From the NCBI GenBank assembly GCA_038562165.1, contig JBCFAO010000018.1, positions 764-64,763 on the forward strand: a DNA stretch of 64,000 bases. The letters are read 5' to 3'. Below the pieces are notes generated by a model that was not told the origin of the DNA, did no database searches, and was given only the letters and a program-made list of their open reading frames with translations. Below, piece by piece: positions 857-56,335 of this stretch. Every line of letters begins with the position of its first letter. The stretch's first letter is position 1. Both the position numbers and the translations under genes were made by a program. This DNA comes from Clostridiales bacterium (GTDB taxonomy: Bacteria; Bacillota; Peptococcia; DRI-13; UBA5745).

Positions 857-1611
857 TGTACAAAATTTGAGGTTTTGGGGCTGTTGTTCCTTTGGAATAG
901 TAGATTCAAACTATGCCTAACACTAAGTATAGGGAGAAATCAGTGTTCAGTAGCGTAAAACTTGAAATTTTGTGCAGTTAGCCAAGGCAAATACACATAA
1001 AAACTCATTTTTTGTACACACGGCCATAACCTGGGAAGCGACTTTTTCAGTGCCCTCTAACAAACCTGCATTTTTGCTCATTTTCCGAGGAGGCAGGGTC
1101 ACTCTGCCTTGAATCTGTCTAAAAATCTCCCAGAAGAGAAGGGCTGCCACAAATTCGGCAGCCCTTTTTACCGGCGGTTTACGATGGTTCGCGACGGTTT
1201 GCAGCGGTTCGCGACGTGGGAGTCCGCAGCTCGCCGTCCGGGACTGTGCCGGTTACAGATGAGCGGTTGCTTAATAACAGCCAGCTCTGTCAGTGGCATA
1301 TTGCCGGCCTGGCGTGGGGTCACCGCTCGGCCGCTCCTTTGGAAAACGTGCAAAATTGCAGGTTTGGGGGTGTTCACAGTAGCTAACTGAGCAAAAATGC
1401 AGGTTTAAAGTGTCTGAGCACCGTCTTTGTGTTGTGGTCAGACGATTTTTTACTGTATCTAGTGTCGCGAAAAATGAATATACCCTATTGCAATGGGACA
1501 ACGCACTTTAAACTTGAAATTTTGCACAAAAACAGCGGGACAGCAGATACAAAGTTGAAATTTTGCTCAGTTAGCTTCAGCAAACGACGACAAACCTGCA
1601 ATTTTGAACAG
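857..1611. repeat. Repeat locus A: 8 copies of the CAAAAWTKCARGTTTGT-core motif in two opposed-array units
   Basis: Forward copies at 857-877, 1348-1366 and 1382-1407. Reverse copies at 957-982, 1060-1080, 1508-1528, 1549-1575 and 1590-1611. Several copies carry the extension GCTAACTG. Spacing within arrays is 40-43 bp. Confidence 0.9.
1141..1170 (+). terminator. intrinsic terminator-like hairpin
   Basis: GGGCTGCC-acaaattc-GGCAGCCC followed by TTTTTA. It lies between the two repeat units of locus A. Confidence 0.55.
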
Positions 1612-10134: not shown

Positions 10135-11943
10135 ATGCTCCAGAATCGCACTTCTTTAAAATCCTCAATTATCATCTTCCTGCTTGCTCTATTATTATTT
10201 AGCGTAATGGACGGTATTCTATCCCTGCCGGTTTTGGCAGCCGAGGCCGACCACCATACCTCCCGGGTTTATGTAGTGGTGGATACGGCTTTAGCCGACT
10301 CCAGCGATACCGTAGAGCTGGACGTGATGCTTTTTGCCCCCGGCCACGGTTTGGTGACGGACAAAAGCGTCTACGGCGCCTCCTCCCGCAGGGATGACAG
10401 CATCTCCGTGGGCGCCAACGAAGAGGGCCTGATCAAAGTGGAAATCTCCAGTTCAAGTCCCGGCGTCTCGCAAATCGCTTTATCTCTGGTGTCTCAAGAT
10501 GCGGCAGCCAGATTCCTGCAAGGAACAACCGGCTCCTACGAAGGCAAGATTCTCCAAACCAGTACAGGTGTAGAAATCTTTTCCGTTTATTTTATTGCCG
10601 GCAGCCTGGATCCGGAATATTGCCTCATGGAATTCGATAAAGATACCATTGCCGTCACCGATCATCAGTATTCGGATAATGCCATCGGCACCATTTATCT
10701 GCGGACGGAAATTGACCAGCCCGTAGCCAACCAGCGGGTACGGATATACACCAGGAAAAGCGGCGTCCTCCTCTACCCCGCTCTCAGCTCCTCCACCAAT
10801 ACAGGCGAAGGCTCTTCCATCAGCCTGGTTACGGATAAAAACGGCACGGCCTCTTTTGTGGTCCGGGGCTATGAGGTAGGAGATGCGGAAATCTTCTGTG
10901 AGGTGGAAGGAGAGGAATTCAGCGAATTCCTCTATATAGACGTAGCGGAAAATGTTTTTGACTTGGAAGACCCCGATTGGGACGACTATGAGGACGAGGA
11001 AGAGGAAGAAGAAGAGTTGATCATCAGCCGGGAAAATACCAGGGTCAACATCTCCAAATCCATAGCCCTGGAATACGGCAGCAACGCCCGCTATAACCTT
11101 CCTACTACGGAAGCCGGCTGGGATAAAATCGTCATTGGCGGCACAGCCATGACCGCCGACGACGAGCCGGTGCGGGGCCAGCATCTGGTACAGGCTTACG
11201 CCACCGCCGGTAATCTGGACAAAAACACCACGCTGACCACCAGCAACGGCGGCGCTTTCTCCTTTAGCCTTAGTTCCAAAGAGCCTGCCCTGGGCCGCTA
11301 TGCCGTTGGTTTAGGCACCGTGGAGCAGCTAAAAGGCTATCTGGAAGGCAAGGTCAGCGCCGACGACTGCCAGCTTCTCGGTACCGGCATGTATGCCTTC
11401 ATCGGCCACGACTGGAATAAATACATGATCTGCGCCATCGGCGAAAAACAAGCGATTATCAATGGCTACCTGGAAGAAATGGATGTGGCCCCTTTCATTC
11501 AAAATGGTAGAACCATGATGATTGCCCGCCCCATAGCCAACACCATCGATGCAATCAGCAAGTGGGATCAGGCCAAGCAAACTGCCAGCTTCTATGTGGG
11601 CAGCGGCAATTATACCATTGCAATGAAAGTAGGCAGCAGCAGCATCGACCGTACGGAGACCTATGTGGCGCCTAAGCAGTTTACCAGCGACGTGCCCGCC
11701 ATGGTCAAAGACGGCCGGACTGTACTGCCCTTACGAGCTCTGTCCGAGGCCTTTGAGATGAAAACCATTTACGATGCCGGCCAGCAACTGGTGGCTGTTT
11801 ATAACACGGCCATCAAATATCCGCCCCCCTACAATCCAAAGAAAGATCCCAATCATGCCGACTATGATCCCACTATAGATCCCAACAGCGACCAGTACGA
11901 CGCCACCAAGGACCCGGACAGCGACGAATATATTGAACCGTAA
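10135..11943 (+). CDS. secreted cell-envelope protein with C-terminal copper-amine-oxidase N-terminal-like domain
   Basis: AGGAGG at 10124-10129 and ATG at 10135 (the ORF track begins at TTG 10132). Signal peptide ..LSLPVLAAEA, an acidic run DEEEEEEE, and the C-terminal motifs VAPFIQNGRTMMIARPIA.. and VKDGRTVLPLRALSEAFE typical of this domain. Confidence 0.7.
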   Translation: MLQNRTSLKSSIIIFLLALLLFSVMDGILSLPVLAAEADHHTSRVYVVVDTALADSSDTVELDVMLFAPGHGLVTDKSVYGASSRRDDSISVGANEEGLIKVEISSSSPGVSQIALSLVSQDAAARFLQGTTGSYEGKILQTSTGVEIFSVYFIAGSLDPEYCLMEFDKDTIAVTDHQYSDNAIGTIYLRTEIDQPVANQRVRIYTRKSGVLLYPALSSSTNTGEGSSISLVTDKNGTASFVVRGYEVGDAEIFCEVEGEEFSEFLYIDVAENVFDLEDPDWDDYEDEEEEEEELIISRENTRVNISKSIALEYGSNARYNLPTTEAGWDKIVIGGTAMTADDEPVRGQHLVQAYATAGNLDKNTTLTTSNGGAFSFSLSSKEPALGRYAVGLGTVEQLKGYLEGKVSADDCQLLGTGMYAFIGHDWNKYMICAIGEKQAIINGYLEEMDVAPFIQNGRTMMIARPIANTIDAISKWDQAKQTASFYVGSGNYTIAMKVGSSSIDRTETYVAPKQFTSDVPAMVKDGRTVLPLRALSEAFEMKTIYDAGQQLVAVYNTAIKYPPPYNPKKDPNHADYDPTIDPNSDQYDATKDPDSDEYIEP

Positions 11944-11950
11944 CGATACA

Positions 11951-11993
11951 AAAACCGGAGGGTGCAGCAAAATTGCTGTGTCCTCCGGTTTTG
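11951..11993. terminator. bidirectional intrinsic terminator
   Basis: AAAACCGGAGG..GCAGCA-aaat-TGCTG..CCTCCGGTTTT. Confidence 0.85.
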
Positions 11994-12011
11994 AGTTGAT
12001 ATGCGTATATG

Positions 12012-12050
12012 AAAAATGGATATACCAGATTAGGTATATCCATTCTTTTT
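12012..12050. terminator. second bidirectional intrinsic terminator
   Basis: AAAAATGGATATACC-agatta-GGTATATCCATTCTTTTT, between the convergent genes. Confidence 0.8.
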
Positions 12051-12150
12051 GTTTAATGCCGATTAATGCATTATCTCAATTTTTGTGCACCCCTGATTCC
12101 GGATCAAGTCCAAAACCGCCCTCGCTACCCTGCGGACTTGACCGGCTCCC

Positions 12151-12747
12151 CTATCTTTTCTTTATTCCCTCGAAGAAAAAGTCGGTGACCCGCTCCGCCG
12201 CCTCCTGAGGCACGTAATTCTCCCAGACGGAACTGCCCCAGGGCCGCACTAAATTCATTACGGCGCCCATCAAGGCCCCCAAAAACAACTGAGGATCCAC
12301 CGGCCGTATCTCACCGCCGGCAACGCCTGCATCGATAATTTCCTCCAGCCACCGCTGCCAGCGCAAATTCTCCTCCTGGGCCATACTCTGGAATTCCTTC
12401 ATGGCATTGCCCAGCTCTGCCGGATTAATATTCATGCTTAAATAACAGCCTTTATGATGCCGGAACATCACTGTCTCAATCAGGGCTTTCAGTTTATCCT
12501 TCACGGTGGATACCTGGTCAACCGTATTTTTTACCTGCCGGGCCATTTCCTCCATTTCATAATGGACGGCAGCCGACAGCAATTCTTCTTTGCTGCGAAA
12601 ATATTCATATACCGTGCCTTTGCCGATACCGGCAGCGGCAGCAACTTCCTCAATCCGGGTATTGTGGAAGCCTTTGTTGCCAAAGGCCCCCAGGGCTGCC
12701 CGGATAATCTCTTCCCGCCGGTTTTTCTGTGCTTTTTCCTTCTCCAT
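12151..12747 (-). CDS. TetR/AcrR family transcriptional regulator
   Basis: N-terminal HTH FGNKGFHNTRIEEVAAAAGIGKGTVYEYFRSKEELL. Last gene of the RND operon. Confidence 0.9.
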   Translation of the reverse strand: MEKEKAQKNRREEIIRAALGAFGNKGFHNTRIEEVAAAAGIGKGTVYEYFRSKEELLSAAVHYEMEEMARQVKNTVDQVSTVKDKLKALIETVMFRHHKGCYLSMNINPAELGNAMKEFQSMAQEENLRWQRWLEEIIDAGVAGGEIRPVDPQLFLGALMGAVMNLVRPWGSSVWENYVPQEAAERVTDFFFEGIKKR

Positions 12748-21160: not shown

Positions 21161-21363
21161 AAAGCGTTTCCTTTCCCCGAAAGATATCGATAGTCCTGAG
21201 GGGTGAAACCTTTTTTTACTTAGATGGTCTAAATATTTTTTAGGATATTTTTAGTATACTTATGGATGTTTGGTTATACAAATCCTGGGATAAGTATTAG
21301 TAGCTCAACTTTCCTAAATTTCGCTATACACATGCCACTCCACACTACCGTGGGCCTCCCGTC

Positions 21364-21465
21364 TTGCTCAAAAATGCAGGTTTGTCAACCGTCGGCTTGG
21401 GAAATGTGCAAAATTGCAAGTTTGTAGTGTCCACTCACAGCGTTTTGCTCAAAATTTCAAGTTTA
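21364..21465. repeat. Repeat locus B, forward array (3 copies, 40-41 bp period)
   Basis: Copies at 21364-21385, 21405-21425 and 21445-21465: TTGCTCAAAAATGCAGGTTTGT / TGTGCAAAATTGCAAGTTTGT / TTGCTCAAAATTTCAAGTTTA. Confidence 0.9.
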
Positions 21466-21546
21466 GAGGGCGTATTCCGGCCTGAAAATAGGGTTTTCCT
21501 CCTATTTATCGGCTAAATCTGTTCCAAAGCGGTGATTTAGGCATGA

Positions 21547-21650
21547 ACAAACCTGCATTTTTGCACAGTTAGTTCAAGCTAACAACGACAAACCTGCATT
21601 TTTGCTCAGTTAGCCCCGGCGAACAACGACAAACCTGCATTTTTGAGCAG
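21547..21650. repeat. Repeat locus B, reverse array (3 copies, 41 bp period)
   Basis: Copies at 21547-21572, 21588-21614 and 21629-21650: ACAAACCTGCATTTTTGC(A/T)CAGTTAG(C). The linker AACAACG is also repeated. Confidence 0.9.
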
Positions 21651-21658
21651 ATCACAGT

Positions 21659-21771
21659 CTCCCACTACTGCCGCCTCACACTACTGCCGCCTTACACTAC
21701 TGCCGCCTTACACTACTGACGCCTTCCACTACTGACGCCTTCCACTACTGACGCCTTCCACTGCAGCCCCC
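21659..21771. repeat. 16-bp tandem repeat (about 7 units, TTMCACTACTGMCGCC)
   Basis: Units start at 21661, 21676, 21692, 21708, 21724, 21740 and 21756. The unit length is not a multiple of 3. Two sub-variants (CTGCCGCC, then CTGACGCC) occur in blocks. Confidence 0.9.
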
Positions 21772-21877
21772 CACTGCCTCCACTACCCACCCCTGACGAT
21801 TATAATTTTTCGGGCAGCCAGGATATTAAGCAAAATAACTGGCAGCTTTCGTTAATTACAGCAGAATACAATGACCC

Positions 21878-21909
21878 GGCAAAAAGGCAAAAAGGCGAAA
21901 AGGCAAAAA
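21878..21909. repeat. 8-bp A-tract tandem repeat (GGCRAAAA x4)
   Basis: GGCAAAAA GGCAAAAA GGCGAAAA GGCAAAAA. Confidence 0.85.
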
Positions 21910-21986
21910 GGTGCTGTCTCAATTGGCATCAGTCTCAGTCTGTCGTACTGCCCGCTGCCTTAGTGATTCTATCGCGGGTCCTGGCT

Positions 21987-22144
21987 GTGCAAAAATCGAG
22001 GTTGTGCACTGATTTTGTAGGCCTTCAAGCTAAACGACCGTAATTTTTTCGGTTTCACTCCAATTTTTCCTTGAATTTGCGAATTTTTTCGGTTACGCCT
22101 ATATTATCTAGTGCTAACTTCTTGCACAACCTCGATTTTTGCAC
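21987..22144. repeat. perfect 22-bp inverted-repeat pair (variant of the family motif) enclosing 114 bp
   Basis: GTGCAAAAATCGAGGTTGTGCA at 21987-22008 and its exact reverse complement at 22123-22144. The interior holds the direct repeat AATTTTTTCGGTT twice (about 22041 and 22082). Confidence 0.9.
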
Positions 22145-22150
22145 ACTTGA

Positions 22151-22213
22151 GGGGGTTACTGCCGGGGGCGGGGGCGGTGCCGGGGCGGTGCCGGGGGCGG
22201 TGCCGGGGCGGGT
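22151..22213 (+). other. G-run tandem repeat (GCCGGGGCGGT-like x4), potential G-quadruplex on the plus strand
   Basis: GGGGGttactgccGGGGGcGGGGGcGGtgccGGGGcGGtgccGGGGGcGGtgccGGGGcGGG. Confidence 0.6.
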
Positions 22214-22250
22214 CAGCGTGGTCAGCATCGTGCGGGCGAAGAGAAAACAA

Positions 22251-22305
22251 AGGAAGGGCTGTCTCGAATTGGTTTTTGAAAAACCAATTCGAGACAGCCC
22301 TTCCT
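22251..22305 (-). terminator. 55-bp perfect palindrome (27-bp arms), probable terminator of the DUF6530-like gene
   Basis: AGGAAGGGCTGTCTCGAATTGGTTTTT-g-AAAAACCAATTCGAGACAGCCCTTCCT. On the minus strand it is followed by TTGTTTTCTCTT. A partial third copy (GGTGCTGTCTCAATTGG) lies at about 21909-21927. Confidence 0.6.
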
Positions 22306-22333
22306 ATTAAACACGACCATTATATCCCTGAGA

Positions 22334-22849
22334 TCAATATCCCATTTCTTTCAGCAGTCTGGACAGCACCGCCATCCGCTCCCCCAGCAGCTCCCCGTTA
22401 TTGCTGAGAGCTTGGGAAAATAGCTTAATATCCTCGTCAATCAGCGGATTATCCTGACATACCGCCAAAGTCATAGCATCTCCCTGAAGCCCCATTCTAT
22501 CGATCAGCGGCTTCCCTTCATCATAAAACTTAGGGTAGCGGTAAGCTGTCTCCCGAAAATATTGGCTGGTGCGGCAGATCATAATCGCCAGGTCCAGCAC
22601 CCGGTGCAGAGGCAGCTCTTCCGACTGGCGGGACCATTTCTCTCCGGTGTAGCGCCAAACCTTGGCGGAAATATCCACCTTGCCCCGGTCATTCCATTGG
22701 GCAAGCCCCAGGGAAAGCCCTTTAGCATCAGTGTTGAAAGCCGCTCTGCCGTCCACCCGCTCATAATCTTCCGCTACAATTACCGGTTTGTGCTTTAGGG
22801 ACACCGGTATTTTTTTGCCGCTTTCTTTTTTGTTTTGATCATCTGTCAT
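22334..22849 (-). CDS. conserved hypothetical protein (DUF6530-like by recollection)
   Basis: 171 aa counted from Met 20 of the 190-aa ORF. Motifs: HKPVIVAEDYERVDGRAAFNTDAKGLSLGLAQWNDRGKVDISAKVWRYTGEKWSRQSEELPLHRVLDL. Same strand as the GIY-YIG-like gene and 62 bp downstream of it. Confidence 0.55.
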   Translation of the reverse strand: MTDDQNKKESGKKIPVSLKHKPVIVAEDYERVDGRAAFNTDAKGLSLGLAQWNDRGKVDISAKVWRYTGEKWSRQSEELPLHRVLDLAIMICRTSQYFRETAYRYPKFYDEGKPLIDRMGLQGDAMTLAVCQDNPLIDEDIKLFSQALSNNGELLGERMAVLSRLLKEMGY

Positions 22850-22910
22850 CAATGAACCAACCTCTCTTTTCTTTCTCAGCATCTGTCCTGCCGGCCTTTT
22901 TCTCAAAAGC

Positions 22911-41154: not shown

Positions 41155-41658
41155 TTATTCCCCGGCAATATTCATCTTAACATCCGCCGCCGGAATTTTC
41201 AATACTATGCCCTCATGTATCCACGGCAGACCCCGTTTAGCCAGCAAGCTTATGTCCATCTCTCCTAAAGGCCCCAGAACAAAAGCCCTTTCCCCCATCC
41301 GGGGATGAGGCACCGTCAAATCCGGCAGATCAATAGTCAAGTCATCGATCAGCAAGATATCCACATCGAGAGTACGGGGCCCCCAACGCAGGATTCTTTC
41401 CCGCTTATACGCTCTTTCAGCCCGCCGGCAAACCTCCAATAATTCAAGGGGCTCAAGGTTTGTGCTGCAATGAACTGCCATATTGTAAAAGGGCGGCTGT
41501 TCCGTATAGCCTACCGGCTCCGTCTCATAAATGCCGGAGCAGTCCCGAAATTCCAGGCCATTGGCCAGCAAAAAGGTCAGCCCCCCCATTAAATTGTCAT
41601 AACGGTTGCCCAGGTTACTGCCCAAGGACAGCCAAACATCATAGATCTGACCGGACAA
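41155..41658 (-). CDS. folK: 2-amino-4-hydroxy-6-hydroxymethyldihydropteridine diphosphokinase
   Basis: LSLGSNLGNR and GPRTLDVDILL motifs. I chose the TTG start at 41658 (AAGGAGGG 7 nt upstream). The longer ORF to 41718 would overlap the inserted ATPase gene. Confidence 0.85.
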   Translation of the reverse strand: MSGQIYDVWLSLGSNLGNRYDNLMGGLTFLLANGLEFRDCSGIYETEPVGYTEQPPFYNMAVHCSTNLEPLELLEVCRRAERAYKRERILRWGPRTLDVDILLIDDLTIDLPDLTVPHPRMGERAFVLGPLGEMDISLLAKRGLPWIHEGIVLKIPAADVKMNIAGE

Positions 41659-41696
41659 GTTCTTTCCCTCCTTAATAGCCCTTATGAACCCAGCCT

Positions 41697-42986
41697 TTAG
41701 AGCCGCTCTACTGCCCAAAGAGGCAAGTTCAACAGCCAGTCCTCTTTTTTATAATCAGCCATGGATGTCCTAATAGATTGTGGAGGCTTGAATTTCCCAT
41801 GATAGGTTTTCAAACTTTTCGCCCGAAGGTTAGCCTCGGCCTTAACCTCTATAGGTATGACGGCGTTGCCGGTGTCAATAACAAAATCCACTTCGGCAGT
41901 GCCTCGCTCGGCTGTCCAATAGTAGGTTTGAATATCCTTGAGAGTCTTGAGTTGCTGCAATACGTACTGTTCCGTCAGCGCACCCTTAAACTCCCTGAAC
42001 AGATCGTTACCGTCCAAAAGGATACCCTGATGCAAGCCGACCATACAGGAAAGCAGTCCCACGTCCAGCAAAAATAATTTAAACGCCTTCAAATCCTCAT
42101 AGGCTTTCAGGGGCAAGCTCGGCGCTGTCACCCGGTGGACTTTATGGACAAGCCCGCAGTCAGTCAGCCAAAGCATAGCCAGCTCATATTCTTTTGCCCG
42201 TGCGCCTTCTTTAATAAGCCCATATATAAACTTTTTATTTTCTTTAGTGAGTTGAGCCGGGATGTTGTTCCAAAGCATACGAATACGGGGTACCGCTTCG
42301 TTAGGTGCATGTTTGGAGAAATCTTGTTCATAAGCCGCCAGAATCCGTTGCTGAATTTCCCGCACCTCATTAAAATCCTTATTTTCAGAGAAGCTCTGCA
42401 CCACCTCAGGCATACCGCCCACATAGTAATAGTGTTTCAGCAAATCAATATAATCCTGCTTAAAGGTATTAGCCATCTCGAAATCGCCTTTTTGCAGGAG
42501 CTCCACAAACTGTTCTTTGCCCATGGCTGTCATGAACTCAAAGAATGAGAGAGGATATAGATCAAGAAACTCCACTTTCCCTACCGGAAAAGACGTACCT
42601 TGATGCAGCGCCACACCCAGCATGGAGCCGGCACAGATAATCTCATATTGCGGTGCGTTTTCGTTAAAATATTTTAGTGAGGTCAGTGCCTTGGGAACCT
42701 CCTGAATTTCATCGAAAACCAGCAAAGTATTTCCGGCATTGATCTTGTGTCCGGCGTAGAGCTCCAGGCCCGTTATAATCCGCTCAATGCTGAGGTCCCC
42801 CTCAAAAAGTGCCTGCATTCGGCTATTGTTATCAAAGCTAATATAGACCGTCTCTTTATAGGCGGTCTTGCCGAATTCTTTCATAAGCCAGGTCTTGCCG
42901 ACCTGGCGCGCCCCTCTAATGATAAGGGGTTTTTTATTTTTCTTTTGTTTCCATTTGAGAAGCTGCTCCATCCCGGCTCGATACAT
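41697..42986 (-). CDS. AAA+ ATPase of the AAA_14/DUF4143 type with C-terminal PD-(D/E)xK-like motif
   Basis: Walker A GARQVGKTW, Walker B LLVFDEIQ, and C-terminal ..AEVDFVIDTGNAVIPIEVKAE (D..ExK nuclease-like signature). AT-richer than the flanking fol genes. Confidence 0.85.
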   Translation of the reverse strand: MYRAGMEQLLKWKQKKNKKPLIIRGARQVGKTWLMKEFGKTAYKETVYISFDNNSRMQALFEGDLSIERIITGLELYAGHKINAGNTLLVFDEIQEVPKALTSLKYFNENAPQYEIICAGSMLGVALHQGTSFPVGKVEFLDLYPLSFFEFMTAMGKEQFVELLQKGDFEMANTFKQDYIDLLKHYYYVGGMPEVVQSFSENKDFNEVREIQQRILAAYEQDFSKHAPNEAVPRIRMLWNNIPAQLTKENKKFIYGLIKEGARAKEYELAMLWLTDCGLVHKVHRVTAPSLPLKAYEDLKAFKLFLLDVGLLSCMVGLHQGILLDGNDLFREFKGALTEQYVLQQLKTLKDIQTYYWTAERGTAEVDFVIDTGNAVIPIEVKAEANLRAKSLKTYHGKFKPPQSIRTSMADYKKEDWLLNLPLWAVERL

Positions 42987-43105: not shown

Positions 43106-43507
43106 TCACATCTGGCTGCGATTGCGCGTAAGCTCCACCGCCGCATAATCCAGAGGCCCTCCCAAAGGAGCCTGAGGCTTTTTCAGCAAAATCTTAACGC
43201 TTTCTATTTGGCTGAAGGTAAAGCAAGCCTTAATCACTGCCTGAGCCAAAGCTTCAATAAGGGCAAAAGAAGGTCCTTCCACCACAGCCTTCACCCGTTC
43301 ATATACTTCGGCATAGCTCAAGGTATCGTCGAGGGCATCACTGGCTGCCGCCTTGGCCAGATCCATGGTCATTTCCAGATCCACCACAAACCATTGGCCC
43401 AGCTCCAATTCGGCCTTCAGGCAGCCGTGGCGGCCATAAAACCGCAGGCCCTTGAGAATAATTTTATCGCTGATTATTGTATCGCTGCTCATTGTATCGC
43501 TCATCAC
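43106..43507 (-). CDS. folB: dihydroneopterin aldolase
   Basis: ILKGLRFYGRHGCLKAELELGQWFVVDL. Start/stop overlap with folP. Confidence 0.85.
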   Translation of the reverse strand: MMSDTMSSDTIISDKIILKGLRFYGRHGCLKAELELGQWFVVDLEMTMDLAKAAASDALDDTLSYAEVYERVKAVVEGPSFALIEALAQAVIKACFTFSQIESVKILLKKPQAPLGGPLDYAAVELTRNRSQM

Positions 43508-47104: not shown

Positions 47105-48568
47105 TCAACTTAAGTAAAAGATATATTGTAAAGGATTCTTATTTTTTCCACAGGCTTTTTCTCCTTCATTAATTCCTTGATCAAAGGGCCCCAAAGCCTT
47201 GATTAAGCCGGGCACCCAAAGCACTTGGGAGCCCCAGGCCAAAAGAGGTAAAAACTCCCGCATTTCCCGGGGTATTTTTTTTTCATTATAAAGCTCTTTG
47301 AGTTTTTTGCGTCCGTAAGGCAGTAAAAGCCAATCGCCGGGCCGGCGGCGGCGCAGCAAAGGCCAGCCTTGATCCGGCGGCCAGCAGCAGATGTATTTGT
47401 CAAGGATTCTTTCCGGCAAAACACAACCGCTATGGCCGGGCTCCCCCCGGCGGCAAACAGCTATTGCCGCCCTGCCGCCGGCAATAGCCAAGGGTCTGCC
47501 GGGGAGGATGGACTGCTCCCGGAACCCCGGCAGCCTCTCCTTTTTCGTCTCTTCTTTTGTCTTTTCTAATATAAGGCAATCTTTTTCCCGCCTGACCCGC
47601 AAACCGCCGGCGGCCTCCGCCCGGGCCCCGTTTCTGCCGGCGGCAGCCAAATCATAGATCCGCTGGATAGCGGCATAATCCGTTTCTTTATCCAGCCATA
47701 AACGCAAAACCCGCCGGGTCAATACCGGGTCCAGCGCCAACAAAGCCTTGATATCCAGCCCCTTTTTCCTTTCAGAAGCGGGATCAAAACCTGCTAAAAG
47801 CTCCAGAATTCCCGGGTTCTCCAGAGGATGCAGCATTTTTTCCAAAGCTTGGGCCGCCAGACCGTCTAAAAAACGGTCCTCCTGGCGCACCAGCTCCGTT
47901 AGCCTGCTGACGGCAGCGCCGAACCGGGGATTGCACTCCTTCAATACAGGAATCACCTGGCGGCGCAGACGGTTGCGCAAATAGGCCTGATCTTCATTGC
48001 TGCTGTCCTGCCGGGCCACTAAGCCCAGTTCCGCCACATAATCCAGTATTTCCCGGCGGCTCACTTCCAACAATGGCCGGATATAGGGCGGCCGTACGGG
48101 CCAGATGCCCCCCAGGCCCCGCAGACCGGAACCGTTTATCATATGAATTAGTACTGTTTCCGCCTGATCATCCCGGTGGTGGCCCAGGGCGATGACCTGC
48201 CCCTCCCAATCTTGCAGCGTTTCCTCCAGAAAAATACGGCGGGCTTTGCGGGCCGCTGCCTCCGGCGACTGACCGGTTTTCACTTCTTTATGGCCGGGCC
48301 AGTAGCCCCGAAAAAAGGGCACCTCCTGCCGGCGGCAAAAATCCTCAGCCCAATCGGCATCCTGCCGGGAAGCTTCCCCCCGTAAGCCGTGATCCAGATG
48401 AGCGCAGGCCAGTTCCAGGCTCCATTCTGCTTTTATTGCTAAAAATGCGCACAACAAAGCCAGGGAATCGGGGCCTCCTGAAAAAGCCACCAATACCCGG
48501 CTGCCTTTTTTAACCATCTGATAATGCAGCAGAGTTTCTGCCATTTTTTTAGGTAAAGCTGTGGGCAA
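47105..48568 (-). CDS. tilS: tRNA lysidine(34) synthetase TilS
   Basis: PP-loop VAFSGGPDSLAL. 487 aa. Confidence 0.9.
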   Translation of the reverse strand: MPTALPKKMAETLLHYQMVKKGSRVLVAFSGGPDSLALLCAFLAIKAEWSLELACAHLDHGLRGEASRQDADWAEDFCRRQEVPFFRGYWPGHKEVKTGQSPEAAARKARRIFLEETLQDWEGQVIALGHHRDDQAETVLIHMINGSGLRGLGGIWPVRPPYIRPLLEVSRREILDYVAELGLVARQDSSNEDQAYLRNRLRRQVIPVLKECNPRFGAAVSRLTELVRQEDRFLDGLAAQALEKMLHPLENPGILELLAGFDPASERKKGLDIKALLALDPVLTRRVLRLWLDKETDYAAIQRIYDLAAAGRNGARAEAAGGLRVRREKDCLILEKTKEETKKERLPGFREQSILPGRPLAIAGGRAAIAVCRRGEPGHSGCVLPERILDKYICCWPPDQGWPLLRRRRPGDWLLLPYGRKKLKELYNEKKIPREMREFLPLLAWGSQVLWVPGLIKALGPFDQGINEGEKACGKNKNPLQYIFYLS

Positions 48569-48631
48569 ACGGTCCTCCCGGCTACGGAAGCATTTGGCGT
48601 CCGGTTGCTAAAATCCTACCAATTTCTTCAA

Positions 48632-48910
48632 CTAACGGCGGATCAGCGATCTTACCGATTCATTATAGGCTTTAGCCACATTATAATAACCGCTATTGGC
48701 CAATTCTGCTACTACAAAATAATGGATGTCTTTTGCGTGGACCTGGTCCGTATAGTACCGGCTGATCCTGTCTACTATGCCTTTAACTATAATGCGAATA
48801 TTCCCTGAGCTCATGGGCTCGCCAATTTCATCGGAGGTGGTCTCCAGAGAAGCTCGTATCTTATCTTCGTTAAATTCTTGAGTTGAACCGTCCCTCTTTA
48901 ATACAATCAC
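48632..48910 (-). CDS. stand-alone ATP-cone domain protein
   Basis: (M)IVLKRDGSTQEFNEDKIRASL...AKAYNESVRSL fits the ATP-cone pattern. The GTG at 48910 has AAGGAGG 8 nt upstream; the ORF-track start at 48928 lies inside that Shine-Dalgarno. Confidence 0.65.
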   Translation of the reverse strand: MIVLKRDGSTQEFNEDKIRASLETTSDEIGEPMSSGNIRIIVKGIVDRISRYYTDQVHAKDIHYFVVAELANSGYYNVAKAYNESVRSLIRR

Positions 48911-49069
48911 GGAAGCTGCCTCCTTCAATATCGCCTTTTGCCCTATTATAACGCCTCCCGGACAAATTTAAAAGAGGAAGTTGCCAATATCGCCATTTGA
49001 TTTCCTGGACAGCCATGATATAATTTTATGATAGATGATAGGTTAAGGCGAATATATTATCTATGAGGA

Positions 49070-49471
49070 GTGTTTGACTTGCAGCAGTTCCGAAAATTCA
49101 TGGAGGGCAGAAATGGCTCAGATCAGCTCTTGTTTGCTCTCTTAATCATTTACTGGCCCTTTTCTTTGGCGGCCCGTTTCACCGGTATCAGGATTTTTGA
49201 TTCTCTGGCCTTAGCTTGCCTGGTTTTTGCCATATTCCGTTTCTTATCAAAAAACAAAGACCGGCGCCAGGCGGAAAACCGGCAATTCCTTCAGCTTTGG
49301 CAGCCTTTTGCCCGTTGGGGCGGCCAGTACCTGCGCCGGATCAGGGAGTTCAAAACCCATCGCTACTTTAAGTGCCCCGGCTGCAACCAGACCCTGCGGT
49401 TGCCGGCAGGCAAGGGCAAAATTACCATCCGCTGCCCCAAATGCGATACTACCTTTGATAAACGAACCTAG
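49070..49471 (+). CDS. membrane protein with C-terminal zinc ribbon
   Basis: Two hydrophobic helices, then CPGC..(17)..CPKC. The start is ambiguous: GTG 49070, TTG 49079 (8 nt after GAGGAG) or ATG 49100. Confidence 0.5.
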   Translation: MFDLQQFRKFMEGRNGSDQLLFALLIIYWPFSLAARFTGIRIFDSLALACLVFAIFRFLSKNKDRRQAENRQFLQLWQPFARWGGQYLRRIREFKTHRYFKCPGCNQTLRLPAGKGKITIRCPKCDTTFDKRT

Positions 49472-49561
49472 AAGAGGTCCGGGGGCTTAATTAATACAAA
49501 ACCGTCATAGCATTATGGAGCAAACAATCAAAAGCACAGAGAAATGTAAGGAGGCTTTCCT

Positions 49562-50662
49562 ATGAATAGCAAACAAAAATGGCAGGTGGGCATCGTCGGC
49601 GCTACCGGCATGGTAGGTCAGCGACTGATTCTCTTATTAAAGGATCACCCTTGGTTCCAGCTGAGCCTTTTGGCGGCCAGCGGCCGTTCCGCCGGCAAAA
49701 CCTACATGGAAGCGGCCGGTCACCGCTGGTTTATGGATGAACCCATTCCCGAAGCCGTCAAAGACATGAAGCTTTACGACGGTGAAAAAGACATCAAAGC
49801 CATTGCCGGTCAGGTGGACTTTGTCTTTTGTGCCGTGGAAATGGACAAAAAAGCCTTACAGGTCTTGGAAGAGGCTTATGCCAAGGCGGAATGCCCCGTT
49901 CTGTCCAACAACAGCGCCCACCGCTGGACCGCCGATGTACCTATGATTATTCCGGAGCTGAATCCGGATCACGCCCAAGTAATTCCCCAGCAGCAGCAGC
50001 GCCTTGGCTCCGTTCACGGCTTCATCGCCGTTAAATCCAACTGCTCCTTGCAAAGCTACCTGCCGGCTCTCTGGCCCCTCCATGAGAAATTCGGCCTGAC
50101 GAAAGCCCTGGCCTGTACTTATCAGGCTATTTCCGGCGCCGGCAAGAACTTCCACACCTGGCCGGAGATGGTGGACAATATCAATCCTCTGATCAAAGGC
50201 GAAGAGGAAAAAAGCGAGCAGGAACCCCTGAAAATTTGGGGCAAAGTCACTCCTCAAGGCATCCTGCCGGCTGCCGGCCCTTCCCTCACCTCCCAATGCC
50301 TGCGGGTACCCGTCACCGACGGCCATATGGCGGCAGTCTTCGCCTCCTTCGAAAAGAAACCGGACATTGATGAAATCAAAAAAATCTGGTCTGATTTTGC
50401 GGGCTTGCCCCAGCAGCTCAAGCTGCCCTCGGCTCCCCGGCAATTCCTCTATTATTTTGAGGAGGAAGACCGGCCCCAGACCCGTCTGGACCGTGACCGG
50501 GAAAAAGGCATGGGCGTATCCATCGGCCGGCTCAGACCCGACAGCCAATACGACATCAAGTTCGTCTGCCTGTCCCACAATACCCTGCGGGGAGCCGCCG
50601 GCGGCAATCTGCTTTTGGCGGAGCTCCTTTGCCAGCAAGGCTACATAAGACAAAACAGATAG
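49562..50662 (+). CDS. asd: aspartate-semialdehyde dehydrogenase
   Basis: N-terminal VGIVGATGMVGQ NAD(P) fold and active-site SNCS. Confidence 0.9.
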   Translation: MNSKQKWQVGIVGATGMVGQRLILLLKDHPWFQLSLLAASGRSAGKTYMEAAGHRWFMDEPIPEAVKDMKLYDGEKDIKAIAGQVDFVFCAVEMDKKALQVLEEAYAKAECPVLSNNSAHRWTADVPMIIPELNPDHAQVIPQQQQRLGSVHGFIAVKSNCSLQSYLPALWPLHEKFGLTKALACTYQAISGAGKNFHTWPEMVDNINPLIKGEEEKSEQEPLKIWGKVTPQGILPAAGPSLTSQCLRVPVTDGHMAAVFASFEKKPDIDEIKKIWSDFAGLPQQLKLPSAPRQFLYYFEEEDRPQTRLDRDREKGMGVSIGRLRPDSQYDIKFVCLSHNTLRGAAGGNLLLAELLCQQGYIRQNR

Positions 50663-50668
50663 CATAAC

Positions 50669-50710
50669 AAGAAACGGTATAATGCCCTCAGCGAGCTTAT
50701 ACCGTTTCTT
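50669..50710. terminator. bidirectional terminator hairpin between asd and glxK
   Basis: AAGAAACGGTATAA-14 nt-TTATACCGTTTCTT. Confidence 0.75.
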
Positions 50711-50727
50711 TATGCCTTTTTATGCCC

Positions 50728-51885
50728 TTACTTGCCTGACCGGCCAAGCTGCAGGCCCAGTGCAACGGCCCGCAGCAGCCGCTGGGCGGCGGCACAGACC
50801 ATATCCTCAGCCTCGGCCATAGCCTGATCCAGAGTCATGGGAGAGCAGACCGCCGCCTCGGCGGCCGCAATTCCGGCGGCATAGACAGCTTCAAGATCCC
50901 GGGCCAGAGAACCGGCCAGAGCCACCACGGGCACACCAAGCTCTCCGGCTTTGCGGGCAATGCCCGCCGGGGTTTTGCCAAAGGCCGACTGCCCATCCAG
51001 CCTGCCCTCCCCGGTAATGACCAAGTCCGTCTGACGAAGTTTTTCTTCAAAGCCGGCGGCGGCAAGCAGAAAATCGATACCGGGATAGAGCTTGGCTTTT
51101 GTAAAAGCCATCAAGCCAAAACCCAGACCGCCGGCGGCGCCGGCGCCGGGTACTTCAGCCAAGTCCTGGCCCAGACAGTCTTTAACGAGAGCCGCCAGGC
51201 GGGCCAGGCCGGAGTCCAGCAAAATGATTTCTTCCTGGCCTGCTCCTTTCTGGGATCCGTAAACTTGAGCCGCTCCCTGCCTGCCGCAAAGGGGATTGGT
51301 CACATCGCAGAGCACTATAATTTCCGCTGCCAGAATTCTGGAATCCAAAGAGGATATGTCTATCCGGCTGATCCGGGCTAAATCCCGGCCCCCGGCCCCC
51401 GGCTCCAGCATCTGCTCCTGGGCATCAAAAAAACGGATGCCTAAAGCCTGAGCCATTCCCAGGCCGCCGTCATTGGTAGCCGAACCGCCGATGCCCACAT
51501 ATAGCCTCCGGCAGCCTTGATCCAGGGCCGCCAGCATTAGCTCTCCGGTGCCGTAGGTGCTGGCGGCCATGATGTCCAATTGATCCGCGGACAGCAGAGT
51601 AAGACCGGAAGCGGAGGCCATATCGATGACAGCGGCGCCGTCAGGCAAAACACCGTAAGCCGCCTCCACTTTTTTGCCCAAAGGGCCGCTGACTACAGCC
51701 CGGCACAGCCTGCCTTCCAAGGCCTGGGTTAAAGTCCGGGCCGTGCCTTCCCCGCCGTCGGCAATAGGCAGGCAAACAATTTCGGCGGCGGGAAATACCC
51801 GCAGCGCCCCCCGGGCTATGGCTGCCGCAGCTTCGCTGCTGCTGAGGCTGCCTTTAAAAGAATCGCAAGCAATCATGATACGCAT
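50728..51885 (-). CDS. glxK: glycerate kinase
   Basis: MRIMIACDSFKGSLSS.., IADGGEGT, GIGGSATNDGG. I chose the start at Met 49 of the long ORF. The upstream 144 nt of that ORF is the 11-bp repeat tract. Confidence 0.9.
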   Translation of the reverse strand: MRIMIACDSFKGSLSSSEAAAAIARGALRVFPAAEIVCLPIADGGEGTARTLTQALEGRLCRAVVSGPLGKKVEAAYGVLPDGAAVIDMASASGLTLLSADQLDIMAASTYGTGELMLAALDQGCRRLYVGIGGSATNDGGLGMAQALGIRFFDAQEQMLEPGAGGRDLARISRIDISSLDSRILAAEIIVLCDVTNPLCGRQGAAQVYGSQKGAGQEEIILLDSGLARLAALVKDCLGQDLAEVPGAGAAGGLGFGLMAFTKAKLYPGIDFLLAAAGFEEKLRQTDLVITGEGRLDGQSAFGKTPAGIARKAGELGVPVVALAGSLARDLEAVYAAGIAAAEAAVCSPMTLDQAMAEAEDMVCAAAQRLLRAVALGLQLGRSGK

Positions 51886-51895
51886 AGGCCTTTTA

Positions 51896-51960
51896 TCTCC
51901 TGTTTCCTGTCTTTTTCCTGTCTGTTTCCTGTCTGTTTCCTGTCTGTTTCCTATCTTTAC
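51896..51960 (-). repeat. 11-bp tandem repeat (about 6 units, mRNA sense GAAACAGACAG) in the glxK 5' leader
   Basis: mRNA sense: GAUAG GAAACAGACAG x3, GAAAAAGACAG, GAAACAGGAG, AUAAAAGGCCU, AUG. The last unit merges into the Shine-Dalgarno. Confidence 0.9.
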
Positions 51961-52058
51961 CCTTTTTTCCTCATCCTGCATCCTTAGGATACCAGAGTCA
52001 ATCTTTATTGTTAACTGCTTTCTTCGCAAAACCTATGGCAAAGCAAAGCCTTCTCAGT

Positions 52059-52093
52059 AAAAAAGATGCTGCCGCGAATTTGCGGCAGCATCT
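52059..52093 (-). terminator. intrinsic terminator after the ABC ATPase gene
   Basis: AGATGCTGCCGC-6 nt-GCGGCAGCATCT followed by TTTTTT on the minus strand. Confidence 0.85.
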
Positions 52094-52097
52094 TTAC

Positions 52098-52892
52098 TTA
52101 TGAAAGAACCAGCTTGTCCTCGGCTTCGTCGGAGCCGCTGGCCCGGCTGAAGAGCTCCAGGAGCTTTTCAACGGTGAGCTTTTCCTTCTCCTCCCCGGAG
52201 ACATCCACGACGATCTGCCCTTCATAAAGCATAATCAAACGGTTGCCGTGCATAATAGCGTCCTTCATGTTGTGGGTGATCATCAAGGTGGTGAGCTTAT
52301 CCCGGTTAACGATGAGATCCGTGGTGTCCAGCACCTTGGCCGCCGTTTTGGGATCAAGGGCTGCCGTATGCTCGTCCAGCAGCAGGAGCCGGGGCTTTTT
52401 TATGGTGGCCATCAGCAAGGTCAAAGCCTGCCGCTGACCTCCGGAAAGCAAGCCCACCTTAGTGGTCAGCCGGTCCTCCAGGCCAAGGCCCAAAGAGGCC
52501 AGCAACTGACGGTATTGCCCCCGTTCTTTCTGGGAAATGCCCCAGCGCAGGCTGCGCTTTTGCCCCCGGCGCAGGGCCAGGGCCAAATTTTCTTCAATGC
52601 CCATACTGGCGGCGGTACCCATCATGGGGTCCTGAAAAACCCGGCCGATAAAAGCGGCCCGCTTATATTCCGGCAAACGGGTTACATCGTCGCCGCCAAT
52701 AAGGATACGCCCGCCGTCTACGGGAAAAACGCCTGCTACGGCATTGAGCATAGTAGATTTACCGGCGCCGTTGCCGCCGATAACCGTGACGAATTCTCCG
52801 TCTTTCAGGACAAGGGAAAGGCCTTTTAAAGCGATTTTTTCGTTAACCGTATTATGATTAAAGGTTTTGCTGATGTTTTGTATTTCAAGCAT
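52098..52892 (-). CDS. ABC transporter ATP-binding protein (COG1101-like)
   Basis: Walker A GGNGAGKST, signature LSGGQRQ, Walker B LLLLDE. The ATG at 52892 overlaps the permease stop by 8 bp. Confidence 0.9.
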   Translation of the reverse strand: MLEIQNISKTFNHNTVNEKIALKGLSLVLKDGEFVTVIGGNGAGKSTMLNAVAGVFPVDGGRILIGGDDVTRLPEYKRAAFIGRVFQDPMMGTAASMGIEENLALALRRGQKRSLRWGISQKERGQYRQLLASLGLGLEDRLTTKVGLLSGGQRQALTLLMATIKKPRLLLLDEHTAALDPKTAAKVLDTTDLIVNRDKLTTLMITHNMKDAIMHGNRLIMLYEGQIVVDVSGEEKEKLTVEKLLELFSRASGSDEAEDKLVLS

Positions 52893-53832
52893 CGCGGCGG
52901 CCTCCTTTCCTGGCGAAAGGCGCGGCCAGGGATTTCTTCCAATGGGGCACGGCAAGGAAGACTGCCACAATCAAGGCGGAAAGCAGCTTCAGGTTGTTGG
53001 GATCCAGCTTCAGCCAAAGAACGGCTTGAATAACTACGTAATATATGATTGCGCCTATAGCAATGCCAAGGAGACGCAGGGAAAAATTCCTGAAGATCTT
53101 GGCAAAGACCACCTCGCCGATAATGACGGCGGCCAAACCGATAACGATAGCCCCCCGGCCCATGTTGATGTCGGCAAAGCCCTGATATTGAGCCAGCAAG
53201 CCGCCGGAAAGGGCTACTAAACCATTGGAAAGCATCAGCCCCAGAACCTTGTTGAAGTCTGTGTTAATGCCCTGGGCCCGGGCCATATGCAGGTTTGTCC
53301 CCGTTGCCCGGATAGAGCAGCCCAGCTCGGTACCGAAAAACCAGTAAAGCAGCCCCACGATAACCAGCACAAAAAGCCCGGTTACCAAAATAGGCGACCA
53401 ATAAAAAGGCCGGGTACCTTTTAATACCTCTTGCAGATAGCGCAGGGATACCAAAAGGTCATAGTTGTTGACGTTAATCGCTTGATTGGGCTTGCCCATA
53501 ATGTTTAGGTTCACCGACCAAAGGCCTAGCTGGGTCAAGATTCCTGCCAGGATAGCCGAAATGCCGCAAAAGGTTTGAAAAAGGCCGGTAGCCAGGCCGG
53601 TGAGCATCCCTGCCAAAAATGCACAAAGAAGCGACAAGCCCACGTTATAGCCGCTTAAAAGCATGACAACGCAAACAGCGCCCCCTGTACAAAAAGAGCC
53701 GTCCACCGTAAGGTCGGCAATATTTAAGATACGGTAAGTGATATAGACGCCAATGGCCATGATCCCCCAGATAAGGCCCTGGGCCACAGCACCCGGGAGC
53801 TGGCTAAAGAGCTCCAGTGGATTAAGTGACAA
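52885..53832 (-). CDS. ABC transporter permease (COG4120-like)
   Basis: 315 aa, about 9 TM helices, adjacent to its ATPase and binding protein. Confidence 0.85.
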   Translation of the reverse strand: MSLNPLELFSQLPGAVAQGLIWGIMAIGVYITYRILNIADLTVDGSFCTGGAVCVVMLLSGYNVGLSLLCAFLAGMLTGLATGLFQTFCGISAILAGILTQLGLWSVNLNIMGKPNQAINVNNYDLLVSLRYLQEVLKGTRPFYWSPILVTGLFVLVIVGLLYWFFGTELGCSIRATGTNLHMARAQGINTDFNKVLGLMLSNGLVALSGGLLAQYQGFADINMGRGAIVIGLAAVIIGEVVFAKIFRNFSLRLLGIAIGAIIYYVVIQAVLWLKLDPNNLKLLSALIVAVFLAVPHWKKSLAAPFARKGGRRDA

Positions 53833-53923
53833 GCGCTCATCCCCCTAAATTAGATTGGTATAAATATAACAGAAGTGGCAGAAAAAATCTAGTTCTGCCA
53901 CTTCCGCTATTTTTCTTATGGAA

Positions 53924-55757: not shown

Positions 55758-56007
55758 TTTGCACAACCTCCTTCCATTGAAATTAAAAGTACCTTGGCGC
55801 TATTTTATCATAATTACGCCATTTTGCCAATGGATTTTCGTGAAGTTCAAAAGATCATAATTCTTTGCTTAATATCTAAATTCCCCGCAAAATTAAACCA
55901 TACATCAAGAAAAGCCGCCAATGATCAGATTTGTCATGCCAAGGTTGACTCGGAATTCGCTTTTGTCCGGTCTGCAGGCTTTGTCCTCTGGTGGTGCGGA
56001 CGTTTTC

Positions 56008-56241
56008 TGTGCAAAAATGCAGGTTTGTATCCAGTAAGGGCGCCAGTTGAGCAAAAATGCAGGTTTGTAGACACCCCTTAGAGTTATGGCAGCTCAAAAA
56101 ATAAGTAGAAATGTATGCCTTGGATGTATTTAGTACCCTGGCAGAAATGAATTCACTACCAAACTGTAAAAAATGTTTAAGCTTTCAAACATTCCTGCTG
56201 ATAAGGGTCTCTAGACGAAGACAAACTTGCAATTTTGCACA
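56008..56241. repeat. Repeat locus C: two forward copies facing one reverse copy of the family motif
   Basis: TGTGCAAAAATGCAGGTTTGT (56008-56028), TGAGCAAAAATGCAGGTTTGT (56048-56068) and ACAAACTTGCAATTTTGCACA (56221-56241). The centre is 152 bp of unique sequence. Confidence 0.9.
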
Positions 56242-56335
56242 GAGGGGGGACCTCAATAAGCCAACCACCCCCTGCCGGTGGGGGCATGCCCATTTCTTTC
56301 CATTAGGTTAATAGACAATCATAAAAAAAGTTAGC

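Follow-up and report, generated by a model that had tools for sequence, protein, structure and literature searches.

Introduction

Among the described systems closest to the locus considered here, the repetitive extragenic palindromes (REPs) are GC-rich hairpin palindromes that lie in alternating orientation and are mobilised by RAYT, the boxB module of the pneumococcal BOX element is 45 bp long and repeated 0-8 times, and in the sopC centromere of the F plasmid a 16-bp palindrome recurs in phase every 43 bp. The end sites of the transposons Tn7 and Mu are about 22 bp long, with irregular or contiguous spacing. The terminal inverted repeat (TIR) of the insertion sequence (IS) IS21 consists of two repeats of about 27 bp, its target-site duplication (TSD) has 5 bp, and its sites are bipartite and cooperatively bound (PMC10122671). 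In the IS607 family, a TnpA filament assembles on phased subterminal motifs, and no TSD is made; the motifs are of 9 bp at a spacing of 10-11 bp, and the ends are not inverted and have GG termini (PMC6188088). The present work concerns a repeat array at positions 21365-21649 of a stretch of 64,000 nucleotides (the window) from a Clostridiales bacterium (GenBank assembly GCA_038562165.1, contig JBCFAO010000018.1), hereinafter called the A element together with the dispersed elements of the same build.

The A element is a lineage-specific, high-copy, non-coding interspersed repeat, and its family is real, well structured and apparently undescribed, with an unusually strict helical design. It is read here, with moderate confidence, as a non-autonomous element of the foldback kind, resembling the miniature inverted-repeat transposable elements (MITEs), that carries helically phased protein-binding arrays. 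The main rival is a host-used platform merely targeted by transposons. Sampled loci of related genomes are cited by their L numbers where they have to be told apart.

Architecture of the A Element and Its Family

The A element is 285 bp long, and three plus-strand sites face three minus-strand sites in it (17-nt cores at 21369, 21409 and 21450 on the plus strand and at 21547, 21588 and 21629 on the minus strand; Table 1). Both the sequence and repeat detection bear out the preliminary description of the locus, which had three copies of a repeat of about 41-bp period facing three others at 21364-21650, while the centre, given there as 81 bp, measures 80 bp. With all the copies aligned in one orientation, the 21-bp site has the consensus TGnGCAAAAWTGCARGTTTGT, i.e., TGnG followed by the 17-nt core CAAAAWTKCARGTTTGT. 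The spacings within the arms are 40, 41, 41 and 41 bp, and the outermost sites pair as the perfect 22-bp terminal inverted repeat TGCTCAAAAATGCAGGTTTGTC (21365-21386 and 21628-21649, by repeat detection). The core has 16 matches in the window at no more than two mismatches, against 0.12 expected (as many were found in 0 of 100 shuffles), and a looser pattern has 17, against 0.20 expected, in agreement with the 17 copies counted before. TG stands at -4/-3 in most of the window copies, and the GTTTGT end points inward in every one of them, as had been noticed; the spacer motif GCTAACTG, formerly credited to five copies, lies upstream of four exactly, the fifth being only a near match.

The wider architecture was described on a sample of 53 elements of 150-320 bp. 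All 53 have plus-strand sites followed by minus-strand sites, with the GTTTGT end inward, as the preliminary description had held for its loci, and 1-5 sites per arm. The 140 neighbouring same-strand site pairs include 60 at 40 bp, 77 at 41 bp and 3 at other distances; the four-turn period proposed earlier thus stands, and the range of 40-43 bp attached to it narrows to strictly 40/41 bp in 137 of the 140. Each site contains the 16-bp pseudo-palindrome CAAAAWTG-CARGTTTG, in which A at position 5 versus G at position 12 is strictly kept and C1, T7, C9 and T13-15 are invariant. The TG four bases outside the core stands at -4/-3 in 84-92% of the outer copies, and the outer ends are confirmed as TG...CA. 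The copies also differ by position: the outermost right copy reads TGCTC, the innermost ones often end in GTTTAR, and the spacers are conserved in the right arm (CAGTTAGCCnnnGCGAACGAnGAC) and not in the left. All the elements are intergenic, outside long open reading frames (ORFs), as had been expected; they are enriched between convergent genes (17/41 versus a baseline of 21%), depleted between divergent ones, found in both orientations relative to the flanking genes and without positional bias towards promoters.

The centres had been said to share no sequence, which holds within the window only, since those of the related metagenome-assembled genome (MAG) cluster into subfamilies of 19 (including 21365-21649), 13 (including 56008-56241), 3, 3 and so on, with smaller groups including 1347-1610. 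Whole units have therefore been dispersed, in subfamilies, and the earlier suggestion of miniature non-coding elements gains in substance. The window elements are 78-93% identical to their paralogous copies over the full length, and the right boundary, ending in TTTTTGAGCA, is common to the paralogues. In the 19-member subfamily, the mean column identity is 85-94% for the sites, 72% for the centre and 45-71% for the spacers; the sites are selectively conserved relative to spacers and centres.

A structured RNA encoded by the foldback, whether a small RNA, a terminator or an attenuator, is a highly improbable explanation of such units. The element strand folds far better than its shuffles (-67 kcal/mol, z = -7.65), which follows trivially from the inverted sites, and a hairpin is predicted in the centre; however, the covariation term of this hairpin is about 0, with compensatory pairs at 1 of 15, so that a structured RNA in the centre was rejected. 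Furthermore, the arms pair at the sites only, the spacers being non-complementary, the elements take either orientation relative to the genes, and the strict phasing of the DNA has no RNA rationale. The Rfam search proposed earlier gave, for the whole window, no family at the gathering threshold and only spurious miRNA-hairpin hits at E <= 1. With conserved sites, non-conserved spacers, no covariation and no Rfam hit, protein-binding sites are favoured over an RNA helix, as in the preliminary description, and action at the DNA level would be the best explanation of the A element.

The surroundings of the A element are themselves rich in repeats. Seven tandem 16-bp units (CACTACTGCCGCCTTA-like) lie at 21659-21787, directly past its right end, and after a truncated paralogue comes a related tandem with a 21-bp ACTGCC unit (L052 2165-2250). 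The words GCAGTG/CACTGA are about 7-fold enriched in the element flanks, where short tandem repeats are enriched too. The same 1.1-kb intergenic island holds two micro-tandem arrays, one of 8-bp GGCAAAAA units (21878-21909) and one of 11-12-bp CGGGGGCGGTGC units (22163-22208). Just downstream of a minus-strand DUF6530 gene (22334-22906) lies a perfect hairpin with a 22-bp stem and a 1-nt loop (22256-22300), which is scored as a terminator in either strand.

Distribution among Related Genomes

In a genome scan that took one genome per species and two sites in tandem as the pattern, at least 65 loci matched; among those listed, 58 come from one MAG, Clostridia bacterium R1-B15.2, and one from the MAG SM1-B15.1, while the listed matches outside Clostridia (Nostoc, Pelatocladus, Myxococcota, Caldilineaceae, Actinomycetota) were rejected as unrelated tandem repeats. 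The sister MAG R1-B15.2 holds at least 50 A-type elements. The search of related genomes recommended in the preliminary description thus found the family abundant there and not confined to the three loci of the window, as it would be after a recent local duplication. Since the locus L064 of R1-B15.2 is 96-98% identical to 47380-57314, the window belongs to a close relative of this MAG; the nearest named relatives of its GlpX are Peptococcaceae MAGs. A scan of Joint Genome Institute (JGI) metagenomes yielded only two contigs of the family (VSSQ01), the other matches being unrelated tandem repeats. No match was obtained by blastn versus plasmid and phage collections, a scan of viral contigs gave only one unrelated 29-bp tandem repeat, and neither the motif strings nor the MAG accessions led to anything relevant in the literature. 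Together with the Rfam result, this agrees with the earlier impression that the element is not a described one.

In the sister species MAG JAHDLZ01 (80-86% identity), the syntenic locus has 276 bp versus 1094 bp of repeats in the window (21243-22337): the whole 1.1-kb island is absent there, with no site in 12.5 kb of syntenic sequence, and none was found in 7.8 kb of a Peptococcaceae MAG. In SM1-B15.1 (81-90% identity), a 1+1 element lies between bofA and a DUF1848 gene, where the window has none, its junctions being too diverged to read; the intergenic DNA of the sister-species loci L090, L100 and L102 is likewise too diverged for exact empty-site junctions. L110, tried as an orthologue of window locus A, was rejected as not orthologous. 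The sole close-strain orthologous comparison (locus C versus L064) found the element in both genomes, the element at 56008-56241 standing at the orthologous site of R1-B15.2. Same-strain short-read (Logan/NCBI) contigs, 100% identical to the window, all end inside the repeats wherever they come up to one of the three window loci (L067, L068, L093-L099, L101 and L105). The repeats break every short-read assembly of the organism and thereby limit the contiguity of MAGs in the lineage.

Helical Register and Boundaries

The centres fall into length classes of 69, 78-80, 89-90, 98-100, 111, 118-122, 141-142 and 151-152 bp. When periods of 5-25 bp were tried on the 21 different combinations of subfamily and length, which are not fully independent, some being of common ancestry and some differing by a 41-bp unit, the best fit was at 10.25-10.75 bp with R = 0.75 (Rayleigh p ~1e-5, calculated from n = 21 and this R). 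One-turn variants occur even within single subfamilies (69/79/90, 141.5/152 and 89/98), and the centre length is helically quantised at ~10.5 bp. A sister family with the core CAAAAATCGARGTTGTG has 2+2 sites, an in-arm period of 61-62 bp, i.e., six turns, and a constant inner distance of 73-74 bp; in the window this family is represented at 21986-22145 by a copy with one site on each side (1+1), in which 135 = 74 + 61. Because of the quantised centres, the 40/41-bp phasing and the six-turn period of the sister family, the sites would be read on one face of the DNA and the two arms would interact.

The boundaries were searched for TSDs in three ways: as direct repeats of 2-9 bp at offsets 0-8; with every pair of offsets from 0 to 15 at the two ends, controlled by permutation; and as a generic inverted repeat with a 9-bp duplication within 170-bp flanks. 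A TSD was found in 0 of 48 elements (n = 4-9 bp, offsets 0-8), and the best count over all the offset pairs equals the permutation null; the generic search found only L004 and L057, both enclosed by other TIR families. The check for TSDs advised in the preliminary description was thus negative at any offset. Had such a duplication been made, about half of the copies would be expected, at the measured divergence of the centres, to retain at least 7 of 9 matching bases, or most of 5.

These data bear on two alternatives that derive the arrays from described transposition systems. Miniature ends of the Tn7/Mu/IS21 type, cut at TG...CA by an rve-family DDE transposase with several sites per end, were the candidate put forward first and now look quite unlikely. 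Such ends share with the A elements the TG...CA termini, several oriented sites per end and the difference between left- and right-arm spacers, known from Tn7 and Mu; however, no 4-8-bp TSD is seen, although about half of the copies should retain its traces, and the 40/41-bp spacing is unlike that of Tn7, Mu or IS21, the latter having two ~27-bp repeats (PMC10122671). Nor was an rve-family gene seen in the window (Pfam, ~50 ORFs), next to solo arms or near any sampled copy. The absence of a TSD and the helically phased motifs, with the evidence for arms in register, are in accord with transposition by a serine or tyrosine recombinase of the IS607 kind, whose dimers coat phased repeats, pair the ends and integrate without duplication, and the TnpA filament offers a precedent for it (PMC6188088). 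This explanation is nevertheless unlikely: the 9-bp motifs at 10-11 bp and the non-inverted GG ends of IS607 (PMC6188088) are to be set against sites of 21 bp at 40/41 bp, inverted arms and TG/CA termini, and the sampled loci showed no gene for a serine recombinase.

Mobile Elements around the Sites

Extension of the alignments beyond the sister-family sites revealed, about 65 bp outside them, a 20-bp TIR (GAGGGCACTGAAAAAGTCGC ... GCGACTTTTTCAGTGCCCTC), which defines a MITE family, the T elements. Its TIR pairs bound four size classes: one of 191-192 bp that encloses a 1+1 A-type pair with a 99-bp centre (L054, L060); one of 233-234 bp (C type) with TGTACAAAA... sites; one of 319-327 bp with the 2+2 sister family; and one of 426-438 bp (L004, L036) that encloses a whole A element of the same subfamily as that at 21365-21649. 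Full copies of the sister family outside the window, 2+2 with the 61-62-bp period, are bounded by the 20-bp TIR and a 9-bp TSD. The T-element flanks carry 8-9-bp duplications, which match at 9/9 positions in L038, L054 and L065, at 9/9 in L004 with the right TIR end corrected by hand and confirmed by the generic search, at 9/9 in L031 with a 1-nt shift, at 8/9 in L020 and L051 and at 7/9 in L060. About 11 of the ~20 T elements are inserted exactly at the GGTTTGTNN (GTTTGT) end of an A site, including the one whose TIR lies at 1038-1057 of the window, and the background frequency of this hexamer is only 0.06% of positions.

Two further elements share these surroundings. The U elements, with the 24-bp TIR ACCTGAGTTCCCGCAAAATTAAACC and a length of 555-631 bp, enclose the subfamily with the 152-bp centre, and 2 of 3 pairs have 7/9 duplications. 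An IS of the IS256 family (1405 bp, with a 412-aa Mutator-type transposase; Transposase_mut, E = 3e-110) lies within elements of the A family for at least 6 of its 7 distinct flanks, at several different positions, and is itself without A sites; its flanks in L039 and L001 suggest the 9-bp duplication CAGTTAGCC. Since the T, U and IS256-family elements carry, enclose or target A sites, the islands consist of elements nested in one another that have a single kind of site in common or as their target, and the A sites are linked both physically and by position to TSD-making MITEs and to an IS. An all-against-all comparison found no multi-copy long repeat. The solo arms L052, L039 and L061, considered as autonomous copies, were rejected, as they flank ordinary genes or the IS256-family IS that interrupted an element.

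Proposed Mode of Action and Its Main Rival

In the mechanism proposed, the 1-5 oriented 21-bp sites of an arm, at four-turn spacing, would all lie on the same face of the helix, and a protein that binds DNA sequence-specifically, with its gene at another place in the genome, would coat each arm cooperatively. The facing arms would be brought together across the short centre, so that the centre would have to hold them in helical register, and the copies without TIR may have spread by a chemistry that makes no TSD. From the patterns in the DNA we infer that the sites bind a protein, and do so cooperatively, and that the two arms may synapse. The sites are most likely read by the DNA-binding part of a transposase or recombinase, because the same sites are subterminal or internal in MITEs that have TIRs and TSDs and home to the GTTTGT end.

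Several points weigh against this interpretation. About 45 of the 53 A elements, including all three of the window, are without an outer TIR and, over offset pairs 0-15 and within 170-bp flanks, without any TSD, and a classical DDE origin at the present boundaries, by cut-and-paste or copy-in, is contradicted. The ~600 kb sampled, from 58 MAG blocks together with the window and further loci, yielded neither an autonomous copy nor a cognate protein, and no insertion polymorphism between close strains was documented, the sole orthologous pair (locus C/L064) being occupied on both sides. A nearly palindromic site is more usual for a dimeric regulator or a ParB-like protein than for a transposase that binds its ends, and the conservation of the sites above their flanks could reflect selection for a host function.

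The last two points lead to the main rival, a possible reading though a distinctly less probable one, in which the sites are used by the host, being domesticated or akin to REPs and bacterial interspersed mosaic elements (BIMEs), and serve as phased platforms for a nucleoid-organising, ParB/Noc-like or regulatory protein. The arrays might then be kept by selection and spread passively, by hitch-hiking in T and U MITEs and by recombination, and the bound protein or the DNA structure would attract transposons, as REPs and BIMEs attract certain IS. The much better conservation of sites than of spacers and centres within subfamilies, the 16-bp pseudo-palindrome of the core, the lack of a TSD, the retention of an element at the orthologous locus of two strains and the likeness to sopC speak for it, as does the targeting of the arrays by two unrelated mobile elements, the T MITEs at a fixed position and the IS256-family IS in at least 6 of 7 flanks. 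However, the common centres and precise common boundaries point to the copying of whole units and not to independent evolution of sites, the position-specific variants (inner GTTTAR, outer TGCTC) look as if passed down from master copies, and no positional bias towards promoters is seen. The family is also absent from the 12.5 kb of the syntenic sister species and the 7.8 kb of another relative, which makes a core host function less likely, as wider conservation would probably be expected of it.

A more doubtful proposal, compared with the transposase or recombinase reading, is that the arrays are genome-wide platforms for the landing and assembly of an undescribed bacterial DNA-binding protein that polymerises along a single helix face every four turns (six in the sister family) and pairs facing arms. 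It might take the form of a bacterial counterpart of Foldback elements or Mutator-like elements (MULEs), with TIR-less copies that spread without target duplication, or possibly that of a domesticated set of ~200 phased arrays per chromosome with a host function that are also homing beacons for at least two unrelated transposon types, the T MITEs and the IS256-family IS. If the proposed mode of action is true, the family would offer a compact system for cooperative, helically phased protein-DNA filaments that pair arms over 70-150 bp, as well as a system for transposon homing to a specific protein-DNA structure, the T elements using one fixed site position, and for the way in which short repeats mould the intergenic islands of an uncultured, Peptococcaceae-like lineage.

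Other Repeat Loci and Gene Context of the Window

The remaining repeat loci of the window are collected in Table 1 with the sites of the A element. The motif had been reported at 857-1611 as one locus, of which the true array element is 1347-1610 (88% identical to L011 across its whole length), whereas 857-1057 is a truncated MITE of another type. The right TIR of the latter, GCGACTTTTTCAGTGCCCTC at 1038-1057 with 0 mismatches, abuts the solo site with the core 1060-1076; variant sites lie at 857-877 and ~1000-1022 and an A-like site at 956-972. The other reported locus, 56008-56241, is indeed an array element, of 2+1 sites, and is embedded in a longer repeat. The variant pair noticed at 21987/22123 was recovered as a perfect 23-bp inverted repeat (21986-22008 and 22123-22145).

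Table 1. Coordinates of the A element, of the other repeat loci of the window and of the mobile elements in sampled loci.
Feature	Position	Strand	Basis or remark
Left arm outer (terminal) site L1, TGCT-CAAAAATGCAGGTTTGT	21365..21385	+	belongs to the perfect 22-bp terminal inverted repeat
Left arm site L2, TGTG-CAAAATTGCAAGTTTGT	21405..21425	+	40 bp from L1
Left arm inner site L3, TGCT-CAAAATTTCAAGTTTAG, inner-type variant with GTTTAR end	21446..21466	+	41 bp from L2
80-bp centre, '79-bp-centre' subfamily, imperfect hairpin GGCCTGAAAATAGGG...CCTATTTATCGGC	21467..21546	.	19 homologous centres; length class 78-80
Right arm inner site R3	21547..21567	-	repeat detection and motif scan
Right arm site R2, preceded by the GGCTAACTG spacer motif	21588..21608	-	repeat detection, alignment
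Right arm outer (terminal) site R1, element end ...TTTTTGAGCA	21629..21649	-	same boundary in paralogous copies
Sister-family ('TCGA' or B-type) element, 1+1 sites TGTGCAAAAATCGAGGTTGTGCA, without TIR	21986..22145	.	repeat detection, family alignment
C-type T element (MITE) without left TIR	857..1057	+	aligned to four full TIR-bearing copies
Solo site, core 1060-1076	1058..1080	-	insertion target of the neighbouring T-type MITE
Second array element, 2+3 sites (cores 1351+, 1392+, 1508-, 1549-, 1590-), 99-bp centre	1347..1610	.	motif scan
Third array element, 2+1 sites (cores 56012+, 56052+, 56221-), 152-bp centre	56008..56241	.	13-member subfamily
Longer repeat enclosing 56008-56241, 'U-type' element truncated on both sides	55884..56310	.	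alignment to full copies
Full U elements	L057 4882-5436, L023 1623-2253, L019 5929-6515		TIR pairs
IS256-family IS	L039 1-1331, L001 1-146, L110-L117		inside array elements

The window, a housekeeping region from the chromosome of a spore-forming Firmicute, encodes dnaX, recR, ftsH, tilS, lysS, greA, folBKP, coaX, pyrG, argS, ypeB, glpX and fba; the statement that the loci border accessory genes is, therefore, only partly true. The earlier remark that transposase, Rep and Par genes are missing from the window was confirmed by the Pfam scan of ~50 ORFs, and a tRNA/tmRNA scan of it found none. Versus the 96-98% identical L064, the window has an extra glycerate kinase gene (50728-52029), to which the apparent insertion at 50839-52100, considered as an IS and rejected, corresponds, as well as a cassette of ~700 bp (55181-55889) with a ParE-family toxin (55193-55507) beside the repeat element. 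An AAA_14/DUF4143 ATPase gene (41697-42986) lies between folK (41155-41718) and folB (43106-43507) in an otherwise folate-biosynthesis run. In SM1-B15.1, a nucleotidyltransferase/HepT toxin-antitoxin pair is located between TetR and Big_1 genes (L102 1491-2130), and there is none in the window (11943-12151).

Comparison with Known Systems

Two kinds of repeat array can be set aside on architecture. An array of the clustered regularly interspaced short palindromic repeats (CRISPR) type was rejected, since an arm has no more than five units, the arms form facing pairs and the spacers are common to the copies (CAGTTAGCCnnnGCGAACGAnGAC). The iteron or centromere array of a replicon, which the preliminary description had allowed for, is unlikely: the A element is like sopC in its four-turn tandem period and in the near-palindromic core of ~16 bp per unit, but sopC and iterons occupy a single locus near par/rep genes, whereas the A elements have facing arms at no fewer than 50 chromosomal loci, and this reading was rejected, with no Rep or Par genes in the window and no plasmid or phage match.

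With REPs and BIMEs of E. coli and with BOX, the A elements have in common that they are modular, lie between genes in many copies, vary in their number of units and are enriched downstream of genes, and, like REPs and BIMEs, they are preferred targets of specific mobile elements, here the T MITEs and the IS256-family IS. The A sites differ from REPs and BIMEs in being direct repeats within an arm and weak palindromes with the A5/G12 asymmetry, and no sequence similarity exists. Classical MITEs are likewise short, non-coding and multi-copy, with terminal inverted repeats, but a flanking TSD is expected of them, which the A elements are without. The eukaryotic Foldback elements and MULEs come near in their inverted arms of tandem sub-repeats, variable centre, subfamilies and nested repeat islands; from all three groups the A elements are set apart by the lack of a TSD, the lack of a TIR beyond the sites and the strict 40/41-bp phasing. 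The T elements resemble IS256/Mutator-type elements by their TIR and 9-bp TSD, and an IS256-family IS is present in the lineage; a relation of the A elements to the IS256 transposase would be speculative.

Tn7, Mu and IS21 ends share with the A elements the TG...CA termini, several oriented sites per end and the left/right asymmetry, and the A elements differ in having no 4-8-bp TSD, 40/41-bp spacing, where those ends have about 22-27 bp or an irregular one, and up to five sites per arm. IS607 shares with them the absence of a TSD, the helically phased motifs and a proposed mechanism in which the motifs are coated cooperatively and the ends paired (PMC6188088), and differs from their 21-bp sites at 40/41 bp (four turns), inverted arms and TG/CA termini. 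In mechanism, the nearest analogues are the multi-site transposon ends (IS21: PMC10122671), the IS607 filament formed without a TSD (PMC6188088), the arms of eukaryotic Foldback elements and MULEs and the sopC array, and the A element departs from each of them in at least one defining feature tested. High-copy intergenic repeats with protein-binding modules are already known, and the present evidence brings no new principle of biology.

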